Assembly (NCBI GenBank): GCA_045631025.1
Contig: JAZQTY010000203.1
Span: 1-40,793, forward strand
Direction: 5' to 3'
DNA: 40,793 bases
Source: Eubacteriales bacterium
Lineage (GTDB): Bacteria; Bacillota; Clostridia; Oscillospirales; CAG-272
In this document: positions 3,631 to 36,589 of the stretch, piece by piece
Layout: the number at the start of each line of letters is the position of its first letter
Position numbering within the stretch: position 1 is the stretch's first letter
Position numbers and translations under genes: made by a program
Notes under the pieces: generated by a model
Databases searched by the model: none
What the model was told of the DNA's origin: nothing
What the model saw: the letters and a program-made list of their open reading frames with translations, nothing else

Positions 3631-4689
3631 ATGAAAAAACTTTTATCTTTGGCATTAGTTATTATTATGACTGCATCTCTTATGATCGCGGTCGGCGCAA
3701 GTGGGACGGATGAACCCCAGAACGGAGATCTGCTGGGTACGGTAGATTTTAGCGGTTCGAATTTCACCGACGGAAGAGGCAGCCACTGGAACAAGACGAA
3801 TGCTCAGGTTTCTGACAACGGAGATTCCGTTACGGTTGAGTATACGGATGACAAGCGAAACGATGGTGACGAGAACAGAGGCCGCGCAAGATACGGTTCT
3901 GACCAGATGAGCGCGTACAAAACCGCGGGTAATTCTTATACCGTTGAGTTCACTATCGATTCCAAGGCTTACGTGGGCGTTATGCTTGACGGCAACACGG
4001 GATTCATCATCAATCCTGCTTTGAATTCTACCAGCGTTGGTCAGACGAACGTTATGGACAATATGGATTTTGAGACGTATGACGGTACGGGCGCGTCAAA
4101 GCAGACTTATGCTATAGAGATGACGTGTGCGGCGGAGACGTCTAAAAGCTATGACGGCTCGCTTGATGTTTATGCACCGACGGTATACAGACTTTTCGTT
4201 AAGGACGAGGCTAATGATAGCTGGAGACTCGTAAGAGAGATCACCGATATGGCAGAGCTGTCTCGCTTTGAATTTGAATCAGGCGGATTCGATTATTTCT
4301 ATTTTGCAGTAACCCGTTACGGTGACGATGAGTACAATTTTGACTCAGAGAACGATAATGCTCCCGTAAAGTCCACTGTAAGCAACGTAAATATATACAA
4401 GGGAATTGACTTTATTACCAAAGGCGAGTCTGCTATCGTAGTTCCGCCTGAAGACGAAAACAACGCAGGTGATCCTCCTACAACAAATCCTTCCGGTGGC
4501 AACACAAACAACGACAACGACAAGACTACCGACACAGAGAAGCAGGACACTGAGGCTCAGACCGAGGCACAGACTGAGGCTGAGGCGCAAAAGGGATGCG
4601 GTTCCGTAATCGCAGGAGTAGGTGCTGCTTTGGTAAGCGCTTGCGCGGCAGGATTTGTAATCAGTAACAGAAAAAAGGAAGAGGACTGA
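3631..4689 (+). CDS. Secreted protein: signal peptide, one jelly-roll module (type A), acidic T/E/A/Q linker, C-terminal KGCGS-TM-RKKEED tail
   Basis: RBS AAGGAGA and an N-terminal signal peptide. The module aligns with both repeats of 6444..9350 (RARYxS..., YTVEFTIDSKAxVGxMLDGNTGFxINP, KQTYAIE, NxPVKSTVSxVxIYKG). The tail resembles those of 12737..13717 and 30212..31999. Confidence 0.8.
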   Translation: MKKLLSLALVIIMTASLMIAVGASGTDEPQNGDLLGTVDFSGSNFTDGRGSHWNKTNAQVSDNGDSVTVEYTDDKRNDGDENRGRARYGSDQMSAYKTAGNSYTVEFTIDSKAYVGVMLDGNTGFIINPALNSTSVGQTNVMDNMDFETYDGTGASKQTYAIEMTCAAETSKSYDGSLDVYAPTVYRLFVKDEANDSWRLVREITDMAELSRFEFESGGFDYFYFAVTRYGDDEYNFDSENDNAPVKSTVSNVNIYKGIDFITKGESAIVVPPEDENNAGDPPTTNPSGGNTNNDNDKTTDTEKQDTEAQTEAQTEAEAQKGCGSVIAGVGAALVSACAAGFVISNRKKEED

Positions 4690-4933
4690 TAACGGTTTTG
4701 CAGTAAAAGGTTGGGCAAAACCAACTGATATAAAGAAACATTAGAAAACGAAGAGCATATCTGAAAAATTCGAAAATATCATCGGAGGGTTTTGGATATG
4801 CTCGGTTTTCGTTAATTCGTTAAAAATGCGATCGTTGGCGGCGTGATTATACCGTGACGGCGGATGTTCAGTCATTTCGCCGTACGGTGTAAAACGGCAC
4901 ACCGCCACCAAGATAAAAACACGAGGAGAATTT

Positions 4934-6409
4934 ATGAAAAGAACAATTACACTTTTAGTGGTAATTTTAATGCTTTTGCCTATAATGGTGTCTTGTTTAG
5001 ATAATACCGAAGAGGTTGGTGAAACTGAATCTTTGGTAGAAGAAGATGACGGATTGCTGTTGAGCGACAAGGTCAGAGACGTTAAGTTCAACGGAGAGGA
5101 CATCAATATATGGCAGGTCACCATAGCAACTAATGCGGCTGAATATTTTTACGATATGAACGGTGACTTTGAGGGAGATATTATTTCCCAAGAAATATTC
5201 AGAAGAAACGTAGCAGTAAAGGATTATTTAAACGTCAATATAAACTTTATTGACGGAGGCGCGGAATCCAGCAACGCGGCAACCGATTGCCGTCCTCTTT
5301 TGCAATCGGACTCTGGAGAGTTTGACGCATACGAGCTTATTCAGTGGAATGGAATGAGTCTTGTTATCGAGGGGTGGTTCAAAAACCTTGACGATTCGAA
5401 GTATCTTGATTTTGAAGGCGAGTGGTGGTCTGAGGATTTTATGGACGCCGCAAAGATAAACGGTCACAACTACGTAATGGCGGGTGACATCGGCATAGAT
5501 ATGGTAAGCTGCGCAGCCTCAATATTCGTTAACAAGAATATGCTTGCTAAATATCACGGTGAGAACGCCTACGAGGAATTGAGAACGATGGTTCTTGACG
5601 GCAAATGGACTATCGAGGAAATAACCAAGCTCTCTAAAGATACGTACGACGATTTGAACAGAAACGAAGTAGTGGATCTTGAGGATCAGTTTGGATTCCT
5701 TTCGAGTCAGAATCACATCGACGGCTGGTATTTCGGAGCAGGCGGTACTACCATAGTGCGCGACAACGAGGGCAAGGCGGTTCTTTCTATGGGAGACGAG
5801 TACACCGTAGACGTTATGGAGCGTCTGTATCGCGTTATGCACGTGGAAAGCCCCAATGATTACGGAAACAATGCAGGCACGGTACAGATATACAATAACA
5901 AGCATCAGTCAACGCTTGTAGAGAAATTCTCTAAGGGGGAGATGATGTTCTGCATAGGTTATCTGTATACGTCAAGAAATCTCACCAATATGGATGACAA
6001 GTTTGCTCCCCTGCCCTATCCTAAATACAATACCGATCAAGAGGAATACTACTCAATTCTTCACAATATAGTAACGCTGTTTGCAATTCCCACGTCTTGC
6101 GCGAAGTACGATCAGACGAGTGCGTCTTTTGAAGTTATGGCAAGCTTTGGAAAGCAGATGATATTACCTTCTTACTATGAAACGATGCTTAAGATAAGAT
6201 ATCTTGACAACGCAGAGGATGCCGCGCTCGTTGATTTGATCTATAATGCGAGAATGTCGGATATAGGCGTTGTATTCAATTCCAAGGCGTTTTCAATTCC
6301 CCGTAAGATGATACAGGAAAAGAGTATGAATATGTCTCGGTATATTACCACGTACAATAATGAAATTCAAGATGACCTGAACAAGATAAACGGTGTGAAT
6401 TTGTCCTGA
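4934..6409 (+). CDS. Extracellular solute-binding-protein-like lipoprotein (no ABC partner genes in the window)
   Basis: Lipobox (LLPIMVSC). About 490 aa, the usual size of family-1 sugar SBPs. Paralog of 28777..30219 (shared PLPYPxY..Q..YY block). SBP assignment is by overall look only. Confidence 0.55.
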   Translation: MKRTITLLVVILMLLPIMVSCLDNTEEVGETESLVEEDDGLLLSDKVRDVKFNGEDINIWQVTIATNAAEYFYDMNGDFEGDIISQEIFRRNVAVKDYLNVNINFIDGGAESSNAATDCRPLLQSDSGEFDAYELIQWNGMSLVIEGWFKNLDDSKYLDFEGEWWSEDFMDAAKINGHNYVMAGDIGIDMVSCAASIFVNKNMLAKYHGENAYEELRTMVLDGKWTIEEITKLSKDTYDDLNRNEVVDLEDQFGFLSSQNHIDGWYFGAGGTTIVRDNEGKAVLSMGDEYTVDVMERLYRVMHVESPNDYGNNAGTVQIYNNKHQSTLVEKFSKGEMMFCIGYLYTSRNLTNMDDKFAPLPYPKYNTDQEEYYSILHNIVTLFAIPTSCAKYDQTSASFEVMASFGKQMILPSYYETMLKIRYLDNAEDAALVDLIYNARMSDIGVVFNSKAFSIPRKMIQEKSMNMSRYITTYNNEIQDDLNKINGVNLS

Positions 6410-6443: not shown

Positions 6444-9350
6444 ATGAAAGTGAAAACAACAAAAAAAGCGCTGTCACTCTTTCTTGCAGTATTGATGATA
6501 GCGTTGGCGATTCCATTTACACTGCTGACAGTATCCGCAGCATCTTATGATTCCGCAAGCGTCGGAGACGTGCTTTACGAGGTAAACTTCAAGGGTGACG
6601 ACACTTATGCGCCTGTTGACGGAAGAGGTGAGTGGTACAAGACCAATGCTACCCCTTCTAATGACGGAAAATCCGTTACAGTTCAATATACGACAGAAAA
6701 AAGATCCGGCGTGACGGTTACTAAAGAGCGTGCAAGATATTGTTCTAACGCTATGACCGCATTCCCTGTAAACGGTAGAGCCTATACAATTGAATTTACC
6801 ATTGATTCTAAAGCTGACGTAGGCTTTATGCTTGACGGTAACACGGGCTTTGTAATCAACCCAAGTCTCAATAGAACGTCGATAGGTCAAAGCGATTGGA
6901 GAAGTGCTTTAGCTAACTACGAATACTACGACGGCACGGGTAATAGCAAGCAAACCTACGCAATAGAGCTTGAGTGTTCGGATACACTCACCGGCGTTAA
7001 ATATTATCCCACTGTTTATAAGCTTTACGTTCAGCAGGACAACGGTACGTGGAAGCTTATAAGAGAGGTTGGCGGAAACGTAACGGTTGGCGGCGATAAC
7101 AACGGTAAAGAGATGGCAAGCATATTTGAATGGGAATATTACGGCAAAAACGAAAACTATGCTTATTTCTATCTTTCCATAAATCGCTACGGCGCGGACG
7201 AAAAAAATTTTGACGCAGAGGATAACCCCGTAAAGTCCACCGTAAGTGACGTAAAGATAAGAAAAGGTATAAACGTTATAGACGTGTATGTAGAAGAACC
7301 GGAAGAACAGGAAAGAGAGCCTCTTTATACTGTAAACTTCAATGGTGACGACACTTATGATCCTGTTGACGGAAGAGGTGACTGGTACAAGACCAATGCT
7401 CAGACTTCCGATGACGGAAAATCCGTTACAGTTCAATATACAACGGAAAAAAGAGACGGTGCGACGGTCACTACAGAGCGTGCAAGATATTGTTCTAACG
7501 TTATGACCGCATTCCCTGTCAATGGCAGAGCCTATACAATTAAATTTACCATTGATTCTAAAGCTGACGTAGGCTTTATGCTTGACGGTAACACGGGCTT
7601 TGTAATCAATCCGAGTCTTAACAGAACCTCGATAGGTCAGACGGACTGGAGAAGCGCATTAGCTGATTACGAGGTGTACGACGGCACGGGTAACAGCAAA
7701 CAGACCTACGCAATAGAGCTTGAGTGTTCGAATACACTCAAAAATGGCAAATACGATCCTGTCGTTTATAAGCTTTACGTTCAGCAGGAAAACGGAACGT
7801 GGAAGCTTATAAGAGAGTTACCTTACAGCAAGGCAGAAAAGTTTGAATGGGAGGATGGCTATGCTTATTTCTATCTTTCCATAAACCGTTACGGTGCAGA
7901 CGAAAACAATTTTGATGCAGATAATAATCCCGTAAAGTCTACCGTAAGCGACGTAAAAATTTACGACAGTATCGGATTCCTTCCTGCTTTCGGTCTTGTA
8001 AGCGGCGCGTCCGTTCGTATTGACGAGCCTACGGGACTTCGCTTTACCGGTATTCTCGGCAAGCATTACGTTGACGGACTCAGAAAAACTTACGGTGAAG
8101 CGGACGTCACGATAGGAATGCTTATCACTCCTACCGATTATCTTGGCGGTATTGAATTTACCAAGGATGCTCTTGATAATAGCGCGGCTCTTGCGGACTA
8201 TGAATACAAATATCTTGAAATTGACGCTACGACTATATTGACCAAGGGTAACAATTACGAGGTGAATTGTACTATCGTAAATATTCTCAAGGGGAACTAC
8301 AACAGAGCCTTCTCCGCAATCCTTTACATAAAGATCACCGACGGTGATACGGTATCGTATTCTTATTCTTCGTACGACGCAGCGTACAATTCAAGAAGCG
8401 TGGCTTACGTTGCTTCTCTTGCAAATTCTGATATGAAGGAAGAACAGAGCGGAGATTACCAATACCCCGTAGAGGATGTTTACGGAAAAACGATGTATAG
8501 TCCCTACAACGATGACCAGAGAACGTTGCTTGAATCTTTCAGCAGTGCTGTTACTTCCTTTACGGTTATGACTTATAACATTAACATAGAGGCTAATAAC
8601 AGCGAAAATATATTGGACACCGTTAAAAATGCAGCTCCCGATATCGTTGGGTTCCAAGAGGACAGCGAAAATTGGAAGAATATTTTACCCGAGCTTAAGA
8701 ACTCCGGATACAATAACGTAGGCGGAGAGAGCAATAACGATGAGTATCTCGATATTTACTACAACAGCAAAAAATTCACAGAGGTTACAGACGGTGCTTT
8801 GTACTACAAGGACCTTAAAAATACGTATTCGGACGTTCCGCTTAATGGAGCAGATTTGAGCTTGGATCAGGATTCTTTTTCCACCTATAAAGGCAGATAT
8901 TTTCGCTACGTAATTTTGAAGGATGCGTCAGGCACACAAATTCTTGTGGTAAATACTCACTTGCATCGTGGCGAAAACAGTGCTGATGACAGACTCCTTC
9001 GTGAATATCAGGCAAGACTTTTGAAGGCTTGGCTTGACGATATGGCTGCTCAATATCCCAATCAGGTCGTTTTGGGAGATATTAACGACGGTCCGAGTGA
9101 GAATTCTATCATTGAGCTTACAGGCGACGGTGCTTTGAGTCAAGCAAGAAGAACCGCATTTCTCAAGGTAGACGTTGGCGGTACTCTTGCAGACAATGAA
9201 GGCCGTAAAACGTATGCGCTTGACCACGTGATCTACAGGGTTGAAAATATGAAAGCACTTGAATATTCAGTAATAGATAACGCATATAGCGATACGTATC
9301 CGTCAGACCATTTGCCCGTAATGGCAAAGTTTGTCTGCTGCACACAATGA
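6444..9350 (+). CDS. Giant secreted protein: 2 x type-A jelly-roll module + conserved middle domain + C-terminal EEP domain
   Basis: Signal peptide MKVKTTKKALSLFLAVLMIALAIPFT. Middle domain GASVRIDEPTGLRFTG...IGMLITPTDYL. EEP motifs MTYNIN, GFQED, NTHLH, LGDIND, DHVIY, YPSDHLPV. Confidence 0.85.
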   Translation: MKVKTTKKALSLFLAVLMIALAIPFTLLTVSAASYDSASVGDVLYEVNFKGDDTYAPVDGRGEWYKTNATPSNDGKSVTVQYTTEKRSGVTVTKERARYCSNAMTAFPVNGRAYTIEFTIDSKADVGFMLDGNTGFVINPSLNRTSIGQSDWRSALANYEYYDGTGNSKQTYAIELECSDTLTGVKYYPTVYKLYVQQDNGTWKLIREVGGNVTVGGDNNGKEMASIFEWEYYGKNENYAYFYLSINRYGADEKNFDAEDNPVKSTVSDVKIRKGINVIDVYVEEPEEQEREPLYTVNFNGDDTYDPVDGRGDWYKTNAQTSDDGKSVTVQYTTEKRDGATVTTERARYCSNVMTAFPVNGRAYTIKFTIDSKADVGFMLDGNTGFVINPSLNRTSIGQTDWRSALADYEVYDGTGNSKQTYAIELECSNTLKNGKYDPVVYKLYVQQENGTWKLIRELPYSKAEKFEWEDGYAYFYLSINRYGADENNFDADNNPVKSTVSDVKIYDSIGFLPAFGLVSGASVRIDEPTGLRFTGILGKHYVDGLRKTYGEADVTIGMLITPTDYLGGIEFTKDALDNSAALADYEYKYLEIDATTILTKGNNYEVNCTIVNILKGNYNRAFSAILYIKITDGDTVSYSYSSYDAAYNSRSVAYVASLANSDMKEEQSGDYQYPVEDVYGKTMYSPYNDDQRTLLESFSSAVTSFTVMTYNINIEANNSENILDTVKNAAPDIVGFQEDSENWKNILPELKNSGYNNVGGESNNDEYLDIYYNSKKFTEVTDGALYYKDLKNTYSDVPLNGADLSLDQDSFSTYKGRYFRYVILKDASGTQILVVNTHLHRGENSADDRLLREYQARLLKAWLDDMAAQYPNQVVLGDINDGPSENSIIELTGDGALSQARRTAFLKVDVGGTLADNEGRKTYALDHVIYRVENMKALEYSVIDNAYSDTYPSDHLPVMAKFVCCTQ
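6561..7967 (+). repeat. Intragenic tandem duplication (period 750 nt) encoding two type-A modules
   Basis: gtaaacttcaa at 6582 recurs at 7332. Identical runs include 6661-6691 = 7411-7441 (31 nt) and 6801-6859 = 7551-7609 (59 nt). Confidence 0.85.
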
Positions 9351-9366
9351 AAGGGAGGATCGAGTT

Positions 9367-9510
9367 ATGCAAATGATTAAGAAGTACGCTACACCGAATG
9401 TCAGTGTTATATTCGTTGCGACGAGTGATGTGATTACAATTTCTCCCGGCGGTGGATATGATGACAAAGAAAACTGGCAGAACGACGTATTTATTGGTAA
9501 AAACCCGTAA
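9367..9510 (+). CDS. Conserved micro-ORF (47 aa) coupled to the giant EEP gene: MQMIKKYATPNVSVIFVATSDVITISPGGGYDDKENWQNDVFIGKNP
   Basis: Below the cutoff of the ORF track. AAGGGAGG RBS; starts 16 nt after the giant gene stop. Shares the K-Y-x-x-P...T-x-D-[IV]...NW-x-x-D-x-F pattern with the micro-ORFs at 13810..13938 and 32045..32173. Confidence 0.55.
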   Translation: MQMIKKYATPNVSVIFVATSDVITISPGGGYDDKENWQNDVFIGKNP

Positions 9511-9583
9511 TTTTAAATGTGTTAAATATGTCAACCATTTGCGGCGTGTGATCTGCTGTTAGAAAAATAAAAATAACAGAAAG

Positions 9584-9616
9584 CTGCACAAGTCCGTTGT
9601 TGACGGACTTGTGCAG
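9584..9616 (+). terminator. 14-bp-stem hairpin (ctgcacaagtccgt/acggacttgtgcag), probable operon end; weak T-tract
   Basis: Perfect inverted repeat with a 5-nt loop. A related copy lies at 28731..28763 in the same orientation relative to its upstream gene. Confidence 0.4.
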
Positions 9617-9653: not shown

Positions 9654-10931
9654 ATGAAAAAGAAAATCAGATTTTTAAGTGCGTTTTTAGTATCTATTTT
9701 GCTTGTGTCTGCGTTGATGGGATGTAACAAAACTCCAACGGAAACGGAAACACAAACACCGTCCGTAACCTCCCCTTTGACGATAAATGGCGTTGCGTTA
9801 AAGGAATATACTGTGGTCTACAACAAAAGACCTATCAGCGGAGCAGAAGATGCATTCTCGTATTTAAATAAAAAAATCGAAGAGCTTTGCGATACTACGT
9901 TGCAAGGAGACGTGATAAGCGCGGACAGATATGAGATATTGATTGGTCTTGACGGAGACAACGGGGATATTGCTCAAGCGTATGAACAAAACCCTGACGG
10001 ATTGATCGGCGCAACCGAAAAAAAGATAGTATTGCTTGGGGTGAATTATGGTGCTTTGTGTCAAGTAATCGATGCTTTTCTTGATAAAGCAACCGAAGTT
10101 AACGGAATCTTTGAGATATCGATAACAGAATGTGAATTTCCGAATGCTAATAAAGCATCTCTTAATATTATGTCTTATAACATCCTTATGGATTTGAACA
10201 AGACCGGACGTCCGTCTGATCCCCGATCAAAAATGGTCAGTACTATTCTCGCCAACGATACCGACGTATTCGGAACACAGGAGGATAATAACGACAACGG
10301 CAATGTCTTTTTCAAAAAGCTTGGAGCCTACAGTTATTATAAGGGTGCTAATGAAGAAAATAACGGCAACTATATATATTGGAAGACCGATAGGTTCAAT
10401 TTGTTGAAAAAAGGATTTTATTATCTAAGTGACACTCCTGAGATAAGATCGAAATTCTCTGATTCAAAGCATTACCGTACTATGACATACGTGATTCTTG
10501 AGGACAAGGAAACGGGAAAGCAAATTCTCTTCGTTGATACGCACTTGCAAAATAATAACACCGAGGGTAGTAACGATACGACACGTAAAAAGCAGTTGGT
10601 CGTGCTGACCTCACTTATCAAGCAAATAAATGTAAACTCCCTTCCTGTTATCATTATGGGTGACTTTAATACCTCTTCGAATGCCGTCTCCGTCCAAACA
10701 TTTAAAAGAGACAATCCCAACCTTGGAGAGACAATAGACATTGCTGTGACTAAGGGCGATATCGGAAAGACCTTTGCGGATAACTTCAAAGACAGAACTG
10801 ACACTATCGATCATATTTTTGTTTCTACAGATAGAATATACACAAAGTATTTTTCCGTGATAGACAATAAGACGAACGGAAAATATCCGTCTGACCATCT
10901 ACCCCTACTTGCTCAAATCGATATATATTAA
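9654..10931 (+). CDS. Lipoprotein with an N-terminal alpha/beta domain and a C-terminal EEP domain
   Basis: Lipobox LMGC. EEP motifs MSYNIL, GTQED, DTHLQ, MGDFNT, DHIFV, YPSDHLPL. Paralog of 26150..27466 over its full length. Confidence 0.85.
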   Translation: MKKKIRFLSAFLVSILLVSALMGCNKTPTETETQTPSVTSPLTINGVALKEYTVVYNKRPISGAEDAFSYLNKKIEELCDTTLQGDVISADRYEILIGLDGDNGDIAQAYEQNPDGLIGATEKKIVLLGVNYGALCQVIDAFLDKATEVNGIFEISITECEFPNANKASLNIMSYNILMDLNKTGRPSDPRSKMVSTILANDTDVFGTQEDNNDNGNVFFKKLGAYSYYKGANEENNGNYIYWKTDRFNLLKKGFYYLSDTPEIRSKFSDSKHYRTMTYVILEDKETGKQILFVDTHLQNNNTEGSNDTTRKKQLVVLTSLIKQINVNSLPVIIMGDFNTSSNAVSVQTFKRDNPNLGETIDIAVTKGDIGKTFADNFKDRTDTIDHIFVSTDRIYTKYFSVIDNKTNGKYPSDHLPLLAQIDIY

Positions 10932-11146: not shown

Positions 11147-11722
11147 TTATTTACCATCAGCTTTAAAGGTTCTATAACATTGATTTCTAAGGAAATCCTT
11201 TATTGACTCAGCATCGATATCCTCATAGTATTTTAACAATAGCTGCTTGAATTCGGGAACGATGCTTTCGGGAACGACCATAAGCCCTGCACCGTGAGCA
11301 ACGAGATAATGATTTGCAAAGATGATTGCCGTTCTCTTGTTACCGTCGTTAAATATCTGTGTTTTCATAACGTACAGAGCAAGCTCGATTGCGATATCAA
11401 GCGCAGGAGCATCCAAGACGAGAATTTTATCAATCTGCTCCTTAACATCATATTCCACGGGCAAAGGGGGAATATAGCTTGAGCCGCCAATCTTTACGGG
11501 AACACCTCTGATTCTGCCACCCTCGTGATAGAAGCCCCCGTTAACAAGGCGAGCAATATATTGGCATACGTAATAGCTTGTGGGCGATTGAACTACATCC
11601 TTATCAAGTACGAATTCCCATGCATGCTTTAAGTTCAATATTTTTTGGACGTCCTCTGCGCTTACGTTGTTAACCTTTCCGTTTTCAATAATCAGCATTT
11701 TGAGCGAAGCGAAAAATATCAT
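11147..11722 (-). CDS. Fic/Doc-family protein with a degenerate active-site motif (QIFNDGNKRTAI)
   Basis: GGRIRGVPVKIGGSSYIPP plus the Doc-like motif xIFNDGNKRTA. No convincing RBS at either candidate ATG (11722 or 11698), and an in-frame TGA lies immediately upstream. Confidence 0.6.
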   Translation of the reverse strand: MIFFASLKMLIIENGKVNNVSAEDVQKILNLKHAWEFVLDKDVVQSPTSYYVCQYIARLVNGGFYHEGGRIRGVPVKIGGSSYIPPLPVEYDVKEQIDKILVLDAPALDIAIELALYVMKTQIFNDGNKRTAIIFANHYLVAHGAGLMVVPESIVPEFKQLLLKYYEDIDAESIKDFLRNQCYRTFKADGK

Positions 11723-13809: not shown

Positions 13810-13938
13810 TTAAAACGGATCTTCTGCCCAGTTATCCATTCCGTCGCTTCCGAATATAACGGAAAATACCATAATATCTTTAGTGTCAACGGTTACGATA
13901 CTAATAGAAGGAACCGTATATTTCTTATTCTTTCTCAT
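13810..13938 (-). CDS. Conserved micro-ORF (42 aa) coupled to the giant EEP gene: MRKNKKYTVPSISIVTVDTKDIMVFSVIFGSDGMDNWAEDPF
   Basis: AAGGAGGAA RBS; starts 14 nt after the giant gene stop. 28/42 residues identical to the micro-ORF at 32045..32173. The last 8 codons differ only at synonymous sites. Confidence 0.65.
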   Translation of the reverse strand: MRKNKKYTVPSISIVTVDTKDIMVFSVIFGSDGMDNWAEDPF

Positions 13939-13952
13939 AAATCAATTCCTCC

Positions 13953-16900
13953 TTATTTCGCGATAAACTTGGCGTAAACAGGCAAGTGGTCCGAAGGATA
14001 GAGCGTAGGAGCATCCTCGTCGTAGTTGTCTACTACAACGTATTCAATAGCGTTCAAGCTGTCGCCGTTATAGAATATGTGGTCGTATACGTGCGACTGA
14101 CGAGTGGAGTATCCATCTTCTATCAGCGTTCCGCCGACGTTTACTGCGATAGCAGCATCTTCCGCTGCCTGGTCAAGTGCGCCCGTGCCGGTAAGAAGTC
14201 CCTTGGTGGAGTGTGCATTCTGGTCAGAGTTAAGGTCACCCATAACGATCTGATTTGCGCACGTTTCACTCATATCAAGGAGCCAAAGTCTTATAAGCGT
14301 CGCCTGAGCTCTGCGCAAGTACTTGTTGCAGTCAGCGTTAGTCGCTTCGTCGTCGGTGAGCCACGCCTTGTAGTGCAAGTGAGTGTTAACAACGAGGAAC
14401 CTCTCTCCCGTGGTCTTATCCTCAACGAGAACCCATCTGAAGAATCTTCCTTTTGCGTTGTCGCCCTTTGTGTCGTTATCCCAGTCCACTCTGGAGTCAG
14501 AAACGTCGCTGTTGCTTGAATATTTTGAATTCTTCGCAAGCTCCTTGAAATACTCAACGCCGTCATCGATAACGTTAAACTTTGCGGTATTAACAAGGAT
14601 CTCGTTTCCTTCATTGCCGTTTGCGTTAGAGTTGAAACGGGTGTATGCGGAAAGACCGGAAACCTTACTGTACTCACCGTAAAGGTTACTGTCGTCCTCT
14701 TGGAGGCCCACAACGTCAGGCATCATCTCGATAATCGTTTCAAGAGCGTATACGGGATCTCTTCCGTCCCAGCCCGTCTCATTACCGGTTATTTTATCCC
14801 AGAAGTCACCTTCACCGTATGCCTTAATGTTATAAGTCATAACTGTAATAGAAGAAGCCTTGACGCTAAAAGTCTCAAGCATTGCTCTCTGATTCTCGTC
14901 GTAAGGACTGTACTTCGTTTCACCGTGAACGGTTACTGCGTTCTTGTAAGTCGAGTCTGCCTTATCTCTTACGTCGGCCAACGCAACGGATGCAACGTAA
15001 GATACGCTTCTTGAGTTGCTTGACTTACCGTATCCGGAATAGATATATTCAGTCTCGTCGCCACTTGTAACCTTGATATAAAGTCTTGCGGAGAACTCTC
15101 TTTGTACGTTATCCGTCTTAATATTTACCAAAGCGCAGTTTATTCTGTAACTGTCGTTACCGTCAGCCAAAATCGTGTCCGCGTCGATCTCGATATACTT
15201 CGTTTTTGCGAAGCTCCAATTATCGAACGCTTCCTTGGTAAATTCGTCAACATTTTCAAGATACTCGGTGGGAGTGATGAGCATTCCCAGCTTTACGTTG
15301 TCCTCGCCGTAGTCCTTAACGAGTCTGTCGTAGTAGCTGCGGGCTACTGTACCCGTAAAGCGAATTCCCGTGGGATCGTCCATACGAACCGATGCACCGT
15401 CAACAAGCGTTTTCTTGAGTGCGCCGCCGTTTACCGTAACCTCGGAAATGATCGCCTCGTGCGCGTTGTATACAATATCAGAAACTGCGATTGCTATATA
15501 TCTTGCCTCAACGCCACCCATATCGATATTATGAACGTGGCCGTCCTTGCCGTTGTAGGTACCTTCCACGTAAAGAGCATCAGCAGTGCTCTGTTTAGGA
15601 TAAACGTCCTCGAAGGAAGCCCCACTTACTGCATTATAAGACTTTCCATCTGTAGAATAATAGATATCGTATCCGTTGTTAGCCATGTAAGGACGGTTCG
15701 CAGGATCAGAGTCATTCACATACTGTGTCCAAAGGCTGAGCGTGTCTACTTGAGCATAATCCTCAAGCCTAATTACAAATATCAAGTAATAAGACTTGCC
15801 GTCTGCGTCGGGATTTTCACCGTTAGCCATAACTCCGTCCGCATCAAAGTAGCACATTTCGTAGTCCTTAATGGTTTCTCCATTTCTATTGTGATTCGCA
15901 TTCTGTGCATCAGTTGTAATATCTCCGTCAAACGCATTCGATATTGGGTAATCATTGTAGAAAGAGAAATTTTGCGTTGCTCCGGTTTCGGGTACAAGGT
16001 GTCTACCAAATGCATCCACTTTATCTATCTCAATAGCAGTCGGCGTTCCGTGCACGGCGAACTCGAAGAAGATCATATAGTTGTTTGCATCGCCATACAC
16101 TGCTTCGGAAACTGCAATAACAACGTACTTCGCCTTCACGTCTCTCATATCTATGTCGTGAACGTGACCCTTATCAGAGCCGTACATGCTCTCAACGTAA
16201 TAGCCGTTGTTATCCTTGTCGCTATAAACGTTGTTGAATTCTGCGTCCTTAACGGCGTAGTAGTTCACACCGTCCGCGGAGTAGTATATATCGTAAGCAT
16301 TGTTTGACATGTACTCGCCGTCATACGTTCCGTCGTCAAGCACGTGGTCGTAGTAGGAGGTCCAGAGGCTCAACGAAGATACCTCGGTCTCCTCATAAAG
16401 CTCAACCTCGAACAAGCAGTAATATGACTTTCCTGCCGCATCGGCATTATTTGTGCCGCTCATAAGCTCTACAAAGGATTTGTGAGCGAGATTTGCGTCA
16501 GGCTTTGTTTGAGCTTCCGTCATAATATTTCCGTCAAAAGCTCTTTCAGTATTGTAGCTGCCCAAAAAGCCCACTCCGTTTCCGTAAGGCTTAAAGGTCT
16601 TTATATCTCCCTTGGGGGCATCAGTATACTCGCCCTCTACGACTATCTCGGAAAAGATTATATCGGTCGCGTTGTATACAAGATCAGAAACGGCAATTGC
16701 AATATATCCTGCAGTTACGCCACCCATATCGATATTGTGAACGTGACCGCTCTTACCGTTGTAGGTGCCCTCTACGTAAAGAGCATCATCAGTGCTCTGC
16801 TTCTTATAAACGTCCGTAAAGGATGCGCCGTCTACTGCTGTATAAGACGCGCCGTCAACGGAATAATAGATGTCGTATCCGTTATTAGCCATGTAAGGAC

Positions 16901-17975
16901 GGTTCGCAGGATCAGAGTCATTCACATACGGTGTCCAAAGGCTGAGCGTGTCTATTTTAGCATAATCGTCAAGCTCTACTACGAATATTCCAAAATACGA
17001 GGTGCCGATCTCGGCAGGGCCCTGCTTCATGCCGCCGTTTGCATCGAAATGAGTCATAACGAAGTCATCTCTATCAGCTCCCGGCCAGGTCTGCGCATCG
17101 GATGTAATATCACCGTCATACGCCTTGTCTTCGGTCCATACGCGGCTGGGCGGTTCGTTTCTGAAGCTTATGGGCTCATAGTCTTCAACCCAATTTCCGA
17201 ATACCGAAAGCTTATTGATATCAATATAGGGATTTACTACAGGCGTACCCATTACCTCAACCTCGGTAAGGATCGCTTCTGCGTTCGACGCGAGTCCGTA
17301 AACTCCGATAGCGATATATTTAGCAGTAACGTCGTTCATTTCTATCTTGTGAACGTATCCTGCCTGATCCTCGCCGTCAGCATTTACAAACGTTTCGGCC
17401 TTATAGAGGGTTTCATATTTTCCGCCGGTATAAACATCGTAAAATTTTGCGGACTCAATGCCTGCGTCGGTATACGTGCTTCCGTCTTCCGAATAGAAAA
17501 TTTCGTATCCGTCGTTGCACATATACCATTCGCCGTAATAGCTTTCCGGCGTCCACAGATTCAAGGAATCAACCACTACTGCGTAGTCAGCAAGCTCGAT
17601 TATAAAGAAGAGAAAATAATCGTCGCCGTTGTTTGCGCCGTGCTGCATTTTGCCGTTCTCGTCAAGGTAGCAGTATTTATATCCACCACCTTTTGCCTCG
17701 ATTTGAGCATCACTTTCAAAGTATCCGCCGCCGTCTTTTGGCTTTACACCATTCACGAGATCGCCATCAAAAGCGTTTTCAGCAGGATACGAGCCACGGA
17801 ATGCAACATTATATCCATCTGCATACTTTCCAAAAGCCGAAACCTTATTGATCTCCACCTTTTGGCTTGTAGCCTCCTCTGCCGACGCCGTCATAAACGT
17901 GAACGGTATCGCAAGCGCTATCATCAGCACTGCAAGAAAGAGCGATAACGCTTTTTTTAGATTTCGCGTTTTCAT
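13953..17975 (-). CDS. Giant secreted protein: 4 x discoidin/CBM32-like module + conserved middle domain + C-terminal EEP domain
   Basis: Signal peptide MKTRNLKKALSLFLAVLMIALAIPFT. Middle domain GASVRMDDPTGIRFTG...LGMLITPTEYL. EEP motifs MTYNIK, GLQEDD, NTHLH, MGDLNS, DHIFY, YPSDHLPV. Confidence 0.85.
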   Translation of the reverse strand: MKTRNLKKALSLFLAVLMIALAIPFTFMTASAEEATSQKVEINKVSAFGKYADGYNVAFRGSYPAENAFDGDLVNGVKPKDGGGYFESDAQIEAKGGGYKYCYLDENGKMQHGANNGDDYFLFFIIELADYAVVVDSLNLWTPESYYGEWYMCNDGYEIFYSEDGSTYTDAGIESAKFYDVYTGGKYETLYKAETFVNADGEDQAGYVHKIEMNDVTAKYIAIGVYGLASNAEAILTEVEVMGTPVVNPYIDINKLSVFGNWVEDYEPISFRNEPPSRVWTEDKAYDGDITSDAQTWPGADRDDFVMTHFDANGGMKQGPAEIGTSYFGIFVVELDDYAKIDTLSLWTPYVNDSDPANRPYMANNGYDIYYSVDGASYTAVDGASFTDVYKKQSTDDALYVEGTYNGKSGHVHNIDMGGVTAGYIAIAVSDLVYNATDIIFSEIVVEGEYTDAPKGDIKTFKPYGNGVGFLGSYNTERAFDGNIMTEAQTKPDANLAHKSFVELMSGTNNADAAGKSYYCLFEVELYEETEVSSLSLWTSYYDHVLDDGTYDGEYMSNNAYDIYYSADGVNYYAVKDAEFNNVYSDKDNNGYYVESMYGSDKGHVHDIDMRDVKAKYVVIAVSEAVYGDANNYMIFFEFAVHGTPTAIEIDKVDAFGRHLVPETGATQNFSFYNDYPISNAFDGDITTDAQNANHNRNGETIKDYEMCYFDADGVMANGENPDADGKSYYLIFVIRLEDYAQVDTLSLWTQYVNDSDPANRPYMANNGYDIYYSTDGKSYNAVSGASFEDVYPKQSTADALYVEGTYNGKDGHVHNIDMGGVEARYIAIAVSDIVYNAHEAIISEVTVNGGALKKTLVDGASVRMDDPTGIRFTGTVARSYYDRLVKDYGEDNVKLGMLITPTEYLENVDEFTKEAFDNWSFAKTKYIEIDADTILADGNDSYRINCALVNIKTDNVQREFSARLYIKVTSGDETEYIYSGYGKSSNSRSVSYVASVALADVRDKADSTYKNAVTVHGETKYSPYDENQRAMLETFSVKASSITVMTYNIKAYGEGDFWDKITGNETGWDGRDPVYALETIIEMMPDVVGLQEDDSNLYGEYSKVSGLSAYTRFNSNANGNEGNEILVNTAKFNVIDDGVEYFKELAKNSKYSSNSDVSDSRVDWDNDTKGDNAKGRFFRWVLVEDKTTGERFLVVNTHLHYKAWLTDDEATNADCNKYLRRAQATLIRLWLLDMSETCANQIVMGDLNSDQNAHSTKGLLTGTGALDQAAEDAAIAVNVGGTLIEDGYSTRQSHVYDHIFYNGDSLNAIEYVVVDNYDEDAPTLYPSDHLPVYAKFIAK
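15426..17864 (-). repeat. Four tandem type-B (discoidin-like) modules of about 200 aa; modules 2 and 4 are partly near-identical
   Basis: The (A/Y)(F)DG(D/N)..T(D/E)AQ anchor recurs four times. 15681-15723 is identical to 16887-16929 (43 nt, offset 1206 nt). Confidence 0.75.
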
Positions 17976-32044: not shown

Positions 32045-32173
32045 TTAGAATGGGTCCTCCGCCCAGTTATCAAGATTGTCGTTTCCGAATATAACGGAAA
32101 ATACCATGATGTCCTTCGTATCGATATCTACTACTCTCATTTCGGGAGAAACGTATTCCTTTTTCATTTTCAT
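32045..32173 (-). CDS. Conserved micro-ORF (42 aa) coupled to the giant EEP gene: MKMKKEYVSPEMRVVDIDTKDIMVFSVIFGNDNLDNWAEDPF
   Basis: AAGGAGGGG RBS; starts 18 nt after the giant gene stop. 32083-32107 is identical to 13848-13872 (25 nt). Confidence 0.65.
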   Translation of the reverse strand: MKMKKEYVSPEMRVVDIDTKDIMVFSVIFGNDNLDNWAEDPF

Positions 32174-32191
32174 AATACAACCCCTCCTTAA

Positions 32192-35100
32192 TTAATATGC
32201 GAACGTTGCGTATACGGGAATGTGGTCAGAGGGATATCTCATAACATCCTTGACTACTTCCTCGCCCGTCTCTTCATCGGTCTCGGTTACAGTACCGGGG
32301 TCGTTCATAACGTTAACTACGGTGTAGGTGAGAGCCTCGGTGTTTCTGAAGAGAATGTGGTCAAATACATATTCATCACGTCCAACGTAATTACTTGAGC
32401 TTGCTAGCGTACCGCCGGTGTCACCGGTAATGCAAGCCTCATCTCTTGCGAAGGAGAGTCCGCTCTCGGAGTAGCCGTTAAGAACCGCCTTACCATTGTT
32501 GGAGTTTATGTGAGCGTTCATATCTCCGGTAAGTATCTGCGTAGGATACTGTGCTTCCTGATCCTTCATCCATGCTGCGAGAAGTCTTGACTGATACTCA
32601 CGAAGAACGTGGTCGTCAGCGCACTTCTCGTCGGAGGAGCTTGTGCCGTCACCGTAGTGGAGGTGAGTATTAACGAAGAGAATTACCTCGCCGGTCGTAT
32701 TGTCTTTGAGAACTGCGTAGCTAAAGGTTCTTCCGATGTCCTCGCTAGAGAACCAGCCCTCTGCGTCACCCTGAGAGTCGATGGACATATCAGTTCCCTC
32801 ATAGCCCTCAATAGTGTAGGTCTTGGCAAGATTCTTGAAGGAATCCCAACCGGAAGTCACAAGAGTGAACTTCTCGGTCTTGTAGTAGATGTCGTTAAAC
32901 GCCCAGCCGTTACCAAACTTGTTGGACCACTTGTACTCTCTGTCTCCTGCAATATTTGCGTATCCTTTGTTCTCAAGAACAGCGAGATAATCGTTCCAGT
33001 CCTCGGTATCCTCCTGGAGTCCGACAACATCAGGGTTAACGTCAAGAATAATCTGAACTGCGTTTGCGGGGTTTCTTCCCTCCCAAGCGTCATCTCTCTT
33101 GTACTCAAGGTTGTAGGTGAGCACGGAAATGGTGGAGTTCTTGTTTGTTCCCTCGCCGTCAGGCTGATTGAAGAAGCTCGTGAGCGTCTTCATCTCGTCT
33201 GCATCGTAGGGGCTGTATACGGTAACGCCTGCAATGGTTATCGCGTTTACGTAATCTCCGCCCATCTCGGTCTTGGTGTCACCATATGCCTTTCTTGCTA
33301 CCTCTGCGACGGATCTGGAGTTATACTCCACGTCAAAATCAGAGTACTTGTAAATTTCGCCGTTAATTTCAATAAACGCTCTTGCAGAGAACTCGCGCGT
33401 GTAGTTAGCAGCCTTTACGTTAACGAGCGCGCAGTTAATAGTGTAGAACAGGCCGTCATCGTCTACGTGTACCGTAGTCGCATCAATCTTTACGTACTTA
33501 ACGCCCGTGATAGCATCGCATGCATCAAGCGCTTCCATAGTAAAGTCGACGCCGTTCTCGGTGAGGTAATCGGTAGGAGTGATTATCATACCGAGCTTTA
33601 CATTCTCCTCGCCGTATTCCTTCTTCAAGGAATCAAGCGTGTACTTTCTGAACTCACTCTCGAAGCGAATACCCGTGGGACTGCTGAGACGAACAGCCGC
33701 GCCCGTTTCGCTCTGAATCTCACCTGCCATAAGTCCCTTGTATATCTTCATGTCAGAAATCTCGGTCCAGGAATTTGCGTCCGAAGTACCGCTGAGCTTT
33801 CTTGTGTAAATTCTGGGGTTAAGGTTATTGCCAAGCTTTGCGCCGTCATAGGTAAGCGTTCTTACTGCGTTGAACGCGCCGTTAGCATCCGCAACGTAAA
33901 GAGTCATAGTGTTATTTTCGGGATCGACCTCAACTGCGAACGTATGCTTCTCGGACTTTTCTACGTCGGTCGAGTAGTTCCACTTATCCTCTCCCGCGTC
34001 AGACTTTCCGACCTTTTCGGTGTTCCACTTATAACAGCGGTTACAGCCAAATCCGTCGATAACGATCGAATGGTCGCCGTCGGCCATGACGCCAAGTCCG
34101 TACTTGTTGTATGCGGTGTTTCCGAATTCGAGGTCAAATATGATGGTGTACTTATACTGCTTGTCGCCGTATACGTAGGTAGTCTCTTCATCAGAACCTT
34201 CCTCCGGCTCTATCACTTCAACAACGTCTCTGAGAGGATAAGAGGTATCGATTCCACCCCAAATAGCGCGGTTATACGACTTACCGTCAATAAGGGTAAG
34301 TCTTGCCATGCTTCCGTCCTCGGAAATAACGGCATCCGCACCGTAGTTGCTATCGCTATAGAAGCCCTGACGCCAATTGAAGCGGTCAGCGAAGTTGACA
34401 GTATAAAGAAGATCGCCGTCCTTTGCGTTATCATACTCGGCAACTCTGTCTTCCTCGGTAGATACAGGCAATCCCTTGTATATCAACAAGTTAGAAAGTT
34501 TAGCCCAAGAATTGGCATTAACTGCGCCTCTTATGACAATCCTGCAGCTCAAATAATCGCCAAAGTCTACATCACCGTACGTAGCTACCTCATTGAACGA
34601 GCCGTCAAGGTCCACAATATAGAGGGACATTGTTTTTGCTTCGGGGTCAACCTCAACAGCAAAGGTCTGTGTACCGGACTTAGGACTCCACAAGCCATCA
34701 TAGTCCCACTGCTCGACGGGATAGTTTGCTCCAACCTCCGTATCCGCGGACATGTCGTTATTCCAGTCCCAGAGTCTGGAGTTTCCGTTTCCGTCGACGG
34801 TAATAGCATAGTTCCCGTCAACCTGAATACCTACCAACGTTCTACCGCCGGTTTCGTTACCGAAATCTACGTCGAACATAACGGTATATTTTCTGTAATT
34901 GCCGTTTGCGTCTGCGGTAAGAGGATATGTGTATTCTCCCCTGTATCCTGCCCACATAGCGCGCTTCGAGCTATAGTTTGCAACGGAAAGCGTTGCGGAG
35001 CTTCCGTCCTTGGAAGCAGTGATATACGCACCTCTGTTGGAGTCAGATGCAAAATTGCCTGCCCAGCCAAGAGAGTTGAAGTTGACGGTGTTAAGAAGAT

Positions 35101-36589
35101 CGCCAACCTTCGCACTATCATACTCAGCAGCTCTGTCTATTGCTTCTGCCTTAATATCGCTGACAGCGCCCTTGTATATCAGAACATCTGCAATTTCATT
35201 CCAGTAATTGCCGTCTACCGTTCCGGACGTATATCTTGTATAGATTCTGCAGTCTAATTTTTTATTGAACTTTACGCCTGTAAACGTTTCTACCTTTACG
35301 TATTCGCCTTCAGTATTCTTTACGTAAAGAGTCATCGTTCCGTTTGCAGTATCAACCTCGACTGCAAACGAATGCAAATCACCATATTTGTCGGCGGCGA
35401 ATCCGCCCGCGGTCAACCAGTTTACTGTTCCCGTGGTGGCTTTAGTGTTCCACTTATACAGATAGGTGTCACCGGATCCGGTAACAAGAATATCCGTGTC
35501 ATTATCTGTACAATCTACCATGATGCCTACTCCGGTTTTTGTATTTCCGAATCTTGCATCATACGTGATTGTGTATTTTTCGCCGCCCTCGGTGGAGAAG
35601 CTATCTGCAGCAGAAAATCCGCCCCAAATTGAGCGCTTATTATTATAGTCGGCAAGTATAGCCTTCGAATGTATCAATTGCTTCAGCGATCTTCCGTTTG
35701 CGGAAGTCATAACATAGGCATGCCAGTTGTTGTGATCTGCAAAATCGTTGCGCCAGGACATGTCGTTAAAGTCGACAACCTTAAGAAGGTCGCCGTTGCC
35801 GGCAGCTGCATATATCTCTGCGGGAGTCTTTTCGACATTGAGCGTATCTACCGTTCCGTTTACGGTAACCTCACCGATATCGATGCATCCGTCCTTACTG
35901 GGAGCTGTTACGGCAACTGCAACGTACTTTGCCGAAACTCCGTTACCCTCACCATCACGAAGATCTATCTTGTGACCAACTCTGAGGTAGCCGTCAACAG
36001 TTTTAGACGCGTATGCGGCATCGCCCTCAACAGGGAACTTCGCTCCGGGATCAGTTCCATCTCCGCACATTCCGCTGAACTCCTTCAAAAAAGTCCAGGT
36101 CTCGCCGTCAGTGCTCACAAGGATTTCATATCCATCGTTAATACCCCAGCTTGATGTGGGATCGCTCCAGGCTACTGCCTTATCTGCAGCGTATCCGTTA
36201 CCCGTAAGCCAAATAGTTACGTCGTCAAGAGTGCTCAAGCCGTTGAGCTCGAATACTGCATATCCGTAATACAGACTCATTGTTGAGCCCACCATAAGAG
36301 GCGTATAGGGGGAAGATATGGACTCGGACTCGTAGTACGGACGTTTACTTCTTCCATCCGCGGACGTATCGTAGGGATCTCCGTCGATCATTCCTGCAAC
36401 GGAGCCATACGAAGTGTGAAGGTCGTATCCGTCACTTCTCTTCGCAAAGATTTTCGCATGCGTAATGGTTGTAGCTATGGTCTCACTTTCCTCTGCCGCT
36501 ATAGGCAACATCGTAAGAGGAAGCGCCAGCGCTATCATCAGCACTGCGAGAAATAATGACAACGCTTTTTTCAGAGTTCTCTTTTTCAT
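32192..36589 (-). CDS. Giant secreted protein: 1 x discoidin-like module + 3 x jelly-roll module (type A-like) + conserved middle domain + C-terminal EEP domain
   Basis: Signal peptide MKKRTLKKALSLFLAVLMIALALPLT. Middle domain GAAVRLSSPTGIRFESEF...LGMIITPTDYL. EEP motifs LTYNLE, GLQED, NTHLH, TGDMNA, DHILF, YPSDHIPV. Confidence 0.85.
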   Translation of the reverse strand: MKKRTLKKALSLFLAVLMIALALPLTMLPIAAEESETIATTITHAKIFAKRSDGYDLHTSYGSVAGMIDGDPYDTSADGRSKRPYYESESISSPYTPLMVGSTMSLYYGYAVFELNGLSTLDDVTIWLTGNGYAADKAVAWSDPTSSWGINDGYEILVSTDGETWTFLKEFSGMCGDGTDPGAKFPVEGDAAYASKTVDGYLRVGHKIDLRDGEGNGVSAKYVAVAVTAPSKDGCIDIGEVTVNGTVDTLNVEKTPAEIYAAAGNGDLLKVVDFNDMSWRNDFADHNNWHAYVMTSANGRSLKQLIHSKAILADYNNKRSIWGGFSAADSFSTEGGEKYTITYDARFGNTKTGVGIMVDCTDNDTDILVTGSGDTYLYKWNTKATTGTVNWLTAGGFAADKYGDLHSFAVEVDTANGTMTLYVKNTEGEYVKVETFTGVKFNKKLDCRIYTRYTSGTVDGNYWNEIADVLIYKGAVSDIKAEAIDRAAEYDSAKVGDLLNTVNFNSLGWAGNFASDSNRGAYITASKDGSSATLSVANYSSKRAMWAGYRGEYTYPLTADANGNYRKYTVMFDVDFGNETGGRTLVGIQVDGNYAITVDGNGNSRLWDWNNDMSADTEVGANYPVEQWDYDGLWSPKSGTQTFAVEVDPEAKTMSLYIVDLDGSFNEVATYGDVDFGDYLSCRIVIRGAVNANSWAKLSNLLIYKGLPVSTEEDRVAEYDNAKDGDLLYTVNFADRFNWRQGFYSDSNYGADAVISEDGSMARLTLIDGKSYNRAIWGGIDTSYPLRDVVEVIEPEEGSDEETTYVYGDKQYKYTIIFDLEFGNTAYNKYGLGVMADGDHSIVIDGFGCNRCYKWNTEKVGKSDAGEDKWNYSTDVEKSEKHTFAVEVDPENNTMTLYVADANGAFNAVRTLTYDGAKLGNNLNPRIYTRKLSGTSDANSWTEISDMKIYKGLMAGEIQSETGAAVRLSSPTGIRFESEFRKYTLDSLKKEYGEENVKLGMIITPTDYLTENGVDFTMEALDACDAITGVKYVKIDATTVHVDDDGLFYTINCALVNVKAANYTREFSARAFIEINGEIYKYSDFDVEYNSRSVAEVARKAYGDTKTEMGGDYVNAITIAGVTVYSPYDADEMKTLTSFFNQPDGEGTNKNSTISVLTYNLEYKRDDAWEGRNPANAVQIILDVNPDVVGLQEDTEDWNDYLAVLENKGYANIAGDREYKWSNKFGNGWAFNDIYYKTEKFTLVTSGWDSFKNLAKTYTIEGYEGTDMSIDSQGDAEGWFSSEDIGRTFSYAVLKDNTTGEVILFVNTHLHYGDGTSSSDEKCADDHVLREYQSRLLAAWMKDQEAQYPTQILTGDMNAHINSNNGKAVLNGYSESGLSFARDEACITGDTGGTLASSSNYVGRDEYVFDHILFRNTEALTYTVVNVMNDPGTVTETDEETGEEVVKDVMRYPSDHIPVYATFAY
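33731..35818 (-). repeat. Three tandem ~220-240-aa modules (GDLLxxV(D/N)F ... FAVEVD...MTLY(V/I) ... (L/K)IYKG)
   Basis: Counted from the translation: approximately aa 258-474, 488-705 and 715-953. Confidence 0.7.

Follow-up and report, generated by a model that had tools for sequence, protein, structure and literature searches.

The 47-codon ORF at positions 9367-9510 (+) of the window is a real, conserved gene, and it most likely encodes an orphan precursor of a linear polyphosphorylated peptide (LPP)-type RiPP, a family of small processed and phosphorylated peptides first described in 2026 (Popov et al., Nat Commun 2026, PMC13381572). In this view, the precursor would be matured in trans. 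The window analysed here is the whole 40,793-nt stretch of DNA, corresponding to contig C203 of a 1.9-Mb, 68%-complete MAG (genome G000). In this genome, 15 such precursor genes are scattered, nearly all of them attached to the 3' end of a gene for a large, mostly signal-peptide-bearing protein.

The micro-ORF and its conservation

The ATG of the ORF is located at 9367 and the TAA at 9508-9510. The TGA of the upstream 968-aa gene is located at 9348-9350, 16 nt before the ATG, and the Shine-Dalgarno sequence AAGGGAGG is located at 9351-9358 (+), directly after the TGA and 8 nt before the ATG. The 968-aa protein (6444-9350, +) has an N-terminal signal-peptide-like sequence and a C-terminal EEP domain (PF03372, residues 709-956). 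Two 42-aa relatives are present in the window. One is at 13810-13938 (-) behind the 1340-aa EEP gene (13953-17975), and the other is at 32045-32173 (-) behind the 1465-aa EEP gene (32192-36589), each 14-18 nt after the EEP gene. According to BLASTP, the 47-mer is aligned with either 42-mer without gaps over 42 residues, with 36-38% identity (E=8e-10 per comparison), and the two 42-mers are 64% identical to each other. None of the three peptides matches a Pfam or NCBIfam model up to E=10.

The original prediction, that a diverged third member of a micro-ORF family follows the 968-aa EEP gene, is confirmed. It was to be abandoned if the motif match lost its support in a proper profile search, and such searches were performed against all 49,630 six-frame segments of the genome. 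Fifteen micro-ORFs were detected at E<=1.9e-8, and the next hit scores 0.3. The pattern [DE]N[WY]xxDxF (the DNW core) occurs in five of these micro-ORFs and nowhere else in the six-frame translation of the genome. A profile built only from 10 peptides of other taxonomic families, each encoded beside the putative maturation genes described below, retrieves nine family members as its nine best hits. The 47-mer ranks 8th, with a marginal E value of 0.03. Among the positions proposed as conserved, Y7, P10, D21, N36, W37, D40 and F42 are invariant in 22 sequences of the subfamily, and S26 is also invariant, whereas T19 is not.

Seven metagenome contigs carry orthologues of the 47-mer in the same gene order: a GH39-like gene, genes of 352 aa and 491 aa, an EEP gene of 845-973 aa, the 47-aa ORF, and a 425-aa EEP gene. 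The Shine-Dalgarno hexanucleotide and the 16-nt gap are identical in all seven contigs, and no stop or frameshift is observed in the ORF. Against the most distant orthologue, 7 synonymous and 4 non-synonymous changes are present (pN/pS 0.14). Against the nearest group, 5 non-synonymous changes and no synonymous change are present. These numbers are small and give no clear sign of purifying selection at that distance. Stronger evidence of constraint comes from the 22 diverged subfamily members.

The overlapping 123-aa antisense ORF (9163-9534) is rejected as the conserved gene, because it is broken by stops in two of the orthologous contigs. Read-through or frameshift extension of the EEP gene is also rejected. 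The 47-aa ORF and one 42-aa ORF are out of frame with their giant genes. Only the third micro-ORF (32045-32194, -) is in frame with the TAA stop of the 1465-aa gene, so that read-through of the TAA would fuse the two (AY*LRRGCIMKMKK...). As the other two copies are out of frame, this is probably coincidence.

A perfect 14-16-bp hairpin (9584-9616, z = -4.6) lies between the micro-ORF and the next gene, and it is conserved in the orthologues. No T-run follows it on the + strand, and it may be an attenuator or a stabiliser rather than a terminator. The next gene (9654-10931, +) encodes a 425-aa EEP lipoprotein-like protein. It is syntenic in the orthologues and has no micro-ORF of its own.

The peptide family

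A profile of the 15 paralogues was searched against 1.84 billion proteins, and at least 2268 representative clusters were found at E<=1e-3. All of the 150 representatives listed are 32-97 aa in length. Their consensus is MKKxYxxPE(M/I)EI(I/V)xFxxEDIITTS(G), followed by 8-73 variable residues rich in G, D, N and E and often containing W or F. The pattern Y..P-x10-[DE]-x4-S is present in 145 of the 150, with Y in 98%, P in 100%, D in 96% and S in 98% at fixed spacing. A conserved head with a hypervariable tail is the anatomy of a RiPP precursor. A literature search for the leader strings EDIITTS and EDVITTS gave no hit.

In the 47-mer, the leader-like half (9367-9444, residues 1-26) contains K-K-Y7-x-x-P10, a β-strand segment, D21 and S26, the putative phospho-acceptor or junction Ser. 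The core-like half (9445-9507, residues 27-47) is PGGGYDDKENWQNDVFIGKNP, with the subfamily motif G-x-D-x-x-[DE]-N-W-x-x-D-x-F. The features which were described in the original prediction as a family skeleton are a RiPP leader of putative RRE-binding type (YxxP ... D ... S) joined to a variable core.

The putative maturation module

The genome encodes one operon on contig C211 (kinase, RRE and peptidase genes at 3862-5360) that has no precursor gene of its own. In order, it encodes a 219-aa membrane protein, a 243-aa HprK/ScmC-like P-loop protein (3862-4593), an 87-aa discrete PqqD-type RRE (4616-4879) and a 162-aa S24/S26 peptidase (4872-5360). The putative kinase has a Walker A motif (GTGKST) and sub-threshold hits to ScmC, HprK_rel_A and HprK_rel_B. 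It always accompanies the RRE, as the same 19 of 41 genomes hold both. The RRE scores 68 bits against PF05402 and gives sub-threshold lasso_PqqD hits in NCBIfam. It matches the lasso B1 protein TbiB1 (5v1u, E=1.2e-6) and, less well, LppB (9x8z_B, E=0.002). In the latter alignment, the equivalents of LppB N33, L32, Y60, D70 and F74, which are reported to hold the leader Tyr and Pro, are conserved. The peptidase carries GTSMxP, LHR and GDN, the Ser/His/Asp set of SipW/archaeal-type signal peptidases. These motifs are conserved in eight homologues, and sub-threshold hits to sigpep_I_arch and SipW were obtained. A second, weaker PqqD-like match of 30.5 bits (contig C71:3834-3998, -) has no kinase or peptidase beside it.

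The peptides and the module co-occur. In the window's genus, 11 genomes hold both, 1 holds peptides only, 2 hold the module only and 10 hold neither. In 300 genomes of the order at >=90% completeness, the corresponding counts are 63, 4, 33 and 200 (odds ratio 95). The association repeats within five of the six families tested separately (f1 8/8, f8 8/8, f14 6/7, f5 3/4 and f15 3/3), and in the sixth, f20, it is 2/2 with P=0.13. Related genomes are not independent and the P-values overstate the case, but the patchy pattern within families argues against a single-clade artefact.

In at least ten genomes of other families, a peptide with this leader is encoded directly beside the module. The order large surface protein, peptide, (SLH protein), kinase, RRE, peptidase, and then an ABC exporter (G060, G177) or NTP_transf_5 (G049) is seen in genomes G049, G304, G239, G253, G060, G043, G254 and G177. 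In G254 (contig C45, 3395-4453) and G177 (contig C25, 3530-4561), an SLH-domain (cell-wall binding) protein is located between the precursor and the kinase. The gene upstream of the precursor encodes a giant surface protein with InlB-B-repeat, Big or SdrD domains. These features hint at a role for these peptides in the cell envelope. In G038 (contig C52, 5385-7218) and G034 (contig C23, 3295-6275), a radical SAM enzyme is added and the precursors have the same leader but Cys-containing cores. In G034, the kinase and the RRE are fused into one 392-aa protein.

Relation to the EEP genes

Nine of the 15 paralogues abut an EEP ORF. Eight are located immediately 3' of it and one immediately 5'. The genome contains 30 PF03372 domain matches, which is an unusual expansion for a 1.9-Mb, 68%-complete genome, and only the giant or split EEP subfamily has such a peptide. 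In two paralogous cassettes of this genome (C101:2602-6980 and C138:5572-9878), the EEP domain is a separate ORF of 279-284 aa, which starts 5-32 nt after the stop of the giant N-terminal protein (1177 or 1139 aa). In the window the two parts are fused. The split form also occurs in one metagenome contig, L057 (646 aa + 293 aa).

The EEP domains of the five DNW-type pairs in this genome are only 39-51% identical to each other. The four 42-aa peptides (13810-13938 and 32045-32173 of the window, C101:6994-7122 and C138:5429-5551) are 64-88% identical over their whole length, while their partner EEP domains are 39-48% identical. This suggests unusually strong constraint or gene conversion acting on the peptide genes. 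Peptide similarity and EEP similarity correlate (Spearman 0.75, on non-independent pairs). A search for DNW-type peptides in 200 representatives of the family found full-length matches only in the window's own genome, and the contexts were therefore taken from metagenome contigs. All 8 distinct DNW-type peptides examined outside this genome (P0006, P0008, P0009, P0021, P0162, P0169, P0170 and locus L081 of the congener G020) are located 13-18 nt behind an EEP C-terminus (YPSDHLPV..). The interpretation in the original prediction, that the pairing of giant EEP gene and micro-ORF is older than the duplications in the locus, is supported by these results. The original prediction undercounted the copies, however, and did not identify the family.

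The rule is wider than EEP. In G020, 20 of 21 peptides are located 1-52 nt (one at 187 nt) behind a large ORF, and for 17 of the 21 that ORF has no EEP domain. One peptide has no large upstream ORF. In related genomes the pairing is with large, probably secreted proteins in general. One pair is conserved between species, as the core GDPDPAENDLAWALE lies behind orthologous proteins in G000 and G020. An atypical 33-aa member (C228:2926-3027 of G000, E=1.9e-8) is located at the 5' end of an operon, next to a divergent AraC gene, and not behind a large secreted protein. A similar peptide in G020 is located 187 nt after an EEP gene.

The catalytic residues of EEP are invariant in an alignment of 33 domains. 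The EEP domain model (pTM 0.81) is closest to EEP proteins of gut Bacteroides (4c1r, 3mpr, 3g6s), including the mannosyl-6-phosphatase BT3783, and the locus also holds GH39-like genes and AraC regulators. The partner proteins here are multi-module secreted proteins of 968-1465 aa, and no micro-ORF partner is known for the Bacteroides enzymes. AlphaFold2 was run, using 33 EEP rows, on the natural TAA read-through fusion of the paralogous EEP domain with its 42-aa peptide. The domain was predicted with confidence, but the peptide stayed disordered (pLDDT 36-46) without docking. The model is uninformative and neither supports nor excludes a partnership.

Comparison with known systems

LPPs were defined in Bacillota by precursors of 35-200 aa with the leader YxxPxVLxHQxIxFETxxS and variable C-termini, an HprK-like kinase (LppK) that polyphosphorylates Ser3 of the core, a discrete RRE (LppB) that binds YxxP, and a SipW-like leader peptidase (LppS, with catalytic S29, H68 and D93) that needs the RRE. 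An MsbA-like exporter (LppD) and an NTP-transferase (LppN) are usually present, no cyclase is present, and the function is unknown (PMC13381572). The system here has the kinase, RRE and peptidase genes side by side. Its leader agrees in part with the LppA motif YxxP...E-T-x-x-S, at Y7, P10, a hydrophobic residue at Y+5 (V12), an acidic residue at Y+14 (D21) and a nearby Ser. The Ser (S26) lies at Y+19 rather than Y+18, the H-Q and F-E-T positions are not conserved, and the leader consensus (MKKxYxxPEhEIhxFxxEDIITTS) differs accordingly from the published logo. The cores are short, 8-25 residues, against 45 in LppA. The peptidase clearly resembles a Ruminococcus entry (SCH01704.1) in the list of LppS homologues in the supplement of that paper, which belongs to a minor cluster (#9) of the similarity network and not to the studied cluster #1.

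In this genus the precursors are not in the cluster, and the 47-aa ORF lies on a different contig (C203) from the module (C211). Up to 15-23 copies are dispersed, nearly all of them 1-52 nt behind the gene of a large, mostly signal-peptide-bearing protein. PF14907 (LppN) was not found in the 68%-complete genome. Neither LppN nor LppD was found beside the module, which in this genus is flanked by the 219-aa membrane protein and housekeeping genes. Both genes are present in clusters of other families of the order (G049; G060 and G177).

Paeninodin-type phosphorylated lasso peptides (PadeA, K, B1, B2, C, D) share a [Y/W]xxP leader bound by a discrete PqqD-type B1 protein, an HprK-like tailoring kinase and acidic cores. 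They differ in the cyclase and B2 protease, neither of which was found here, whereas the leader peptidase here is a serine signal-peptidase homologue and no conserved C-terminal Ser is present. Only short PP-loop fragments matched the lasso cyclase model PF00733, and no B2 transglutaminase (PF13471) scored above threshold, in this genome and in five peptide-bearing relatives at >=90% completeness. Radical-SAM RiPPs with PqqD-type RREs (sactipeptide and ranthipeptide clusters) are approached by the clusters of G034 and G038 and by representative P0157, which has a Cys-rich core. However, the 47-mer has no Cys, and no radical SAM gene is located in the window or beside the module in this genus.

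Interpretation

The analysis itself establishes a conserved small gene tightly coupled to the 3' end of the EEP gene, a leader of the LPP/lasso YxxP type with the family's Y-x2-P-x10-D-x4-S signature, and a cognate-looking kinase, RRE and peptidase module, in trans here and in cis elsewhere. The biochemistry is inferred from sequence alone: translation into a precursor, binding of Y7/P10 by the RRE, (poly)phosphorylation of S26 by the kinase, and cleavage two to four residues upstream of S26 by the peptidase. S26 is presumed to be the acceptor because it is the only invariant hydroxyl residue, as the DNW cores have no conserved Ser or Thr. Removal of roughly the first 22-23 residues would release an acidic, Trp-containing peptide of about 24 residues, T/I-I-S(P)-PGGGYDDKENWQNDVFIGKNP.

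We hold this reading with moderate confidence. The differences from the LPP logo, the marginal match of the 47-mer to the cis-encoded profile, the Pro that follows Ser26 in this copy, the better score of the RRE against a lasso B1 protein than against LppB, the four peptide-positive genomes without the module, and the absence of LppN and of an adjacent exporter in the incomplete genome, which leaves export unexplained, all count against it. As the DNW-type core is found only behind one EEP subfamily, whose predicted fold is nearest to a gut-bacterial glycan phosphatase, the mature phosphopeptide may act together with that secreted phosphoesterase, as a ligand, inhibitor, substrate mimic or anchor. 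This last step is speculative and has no direct evidence.

A bolder reading, which seems unlikely on present evidence but is not excluded, is that in this group of Clostridia-like gut bacteria one trans-acting kinase/RRE/peptidase module matures a whole repertoire of dispersed precursors, each genetically tied to one large secreted enzyme. Each phosphopeptide would then be a dedicated extracellular partner of that enzyme, for example a cognate inhibitor, substrate mimic, cofactor or wall anchor, and for the DNW type the partner would be an EEP glycan phosphoesterase. If true, this would give the first functional role for LPP-type RiPPs and a new principle of RiPPs paired one-to-one with secreted enzymes.

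Among the alternatives, an unprocessed 47-residue micro-protein acting directly on the EEP enzyme (inhibitor, plug, chaperone or small subunit) survives best, although it is unlikely. Its leader-like N-terminus would be a relic or a binding strand, and the operon would play no part. The strict 3' coupling, the specificity of the core type for one EEP subfamily, the high conservation of the 42-mers over their whole length and the lack of an exporter next to the module in this genus favour it. On the other hand, the most conserved part is exactly the YxxP/D/S leader shared with peptides encoded next to the RRE, kinase and peptidase in other families, and peptides are almost never found without the module (63 of 67 have it). 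The G020 peptides behind proteins without EEP domains show that EEP-specific inhibition cannot explain the family. The absence of docking in the fusion model is only weak evidence against this alternative.

A coding-neutral or regulatory element, kept for translational coupling or mRNA 3'-end effects on the EEP operon, or a decaying orphan precursor without function, is still less likely. The position at the operon's 3' end upstream of a strong hairpin, the 5 non-synonymous and 0 synonymous differences, and the greater divergence of this copy than of its paralogues are in its favour. However, eight residues are invariant across 22 diverged members, including forms intermediate to the 47-aa type (P0098, P0160, P0169), pN/pS is 0.14 at the larger distance, the frame is intact in every copy, and a strong RBS is conserved. 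A lasso-peptide precursor is very unlikely and is rejected, because neither cyclase nor B2 protease was found in this genome or in five peptide-bearing relatives at >=90% completeness and the peptidase beside the RRE is of the SipW type, although the leader weakly resembles the TfuA leader (6jx3_A, E=0.52), the RRE is most similar to TbiB1, and the acidic core could supply a ring-closing Asp or Glu.

LPPs were described from Bacilli, and the main text of that paper mentions neither Clostridia nor orphan or dispersed precursors. The ORF belongs to a very large branch (more than 2000 clusters) that appears to be undescribed apart from the one peptidase entry in the supplement. In this branch the precursors have left the biosynthetic cluster and multiplied, with 15 copies in this genome and 23 in a congener. 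Nearly all are joined to the 3' end of a gene for a large protein, and core types are specific to the partner, as with DNW and EEP. This genetic pairing is a concrete, testable clue to what phosphorylated linear RiPPs do. It also shows that cluster-based genome mining misses most precursors of this kind, and it flags thousands of unannotated 30-60-aa genes in gut and rumen metagenomes.

A Fic/DOC-domain gene (11147-11722, -) follows the cassette in the window. Downstream of it, the orthologous contigs (L027-L029) differ, carrying HEPN_Toprim_N or RNase_T genes, which suggests a variable island next to the cassette.
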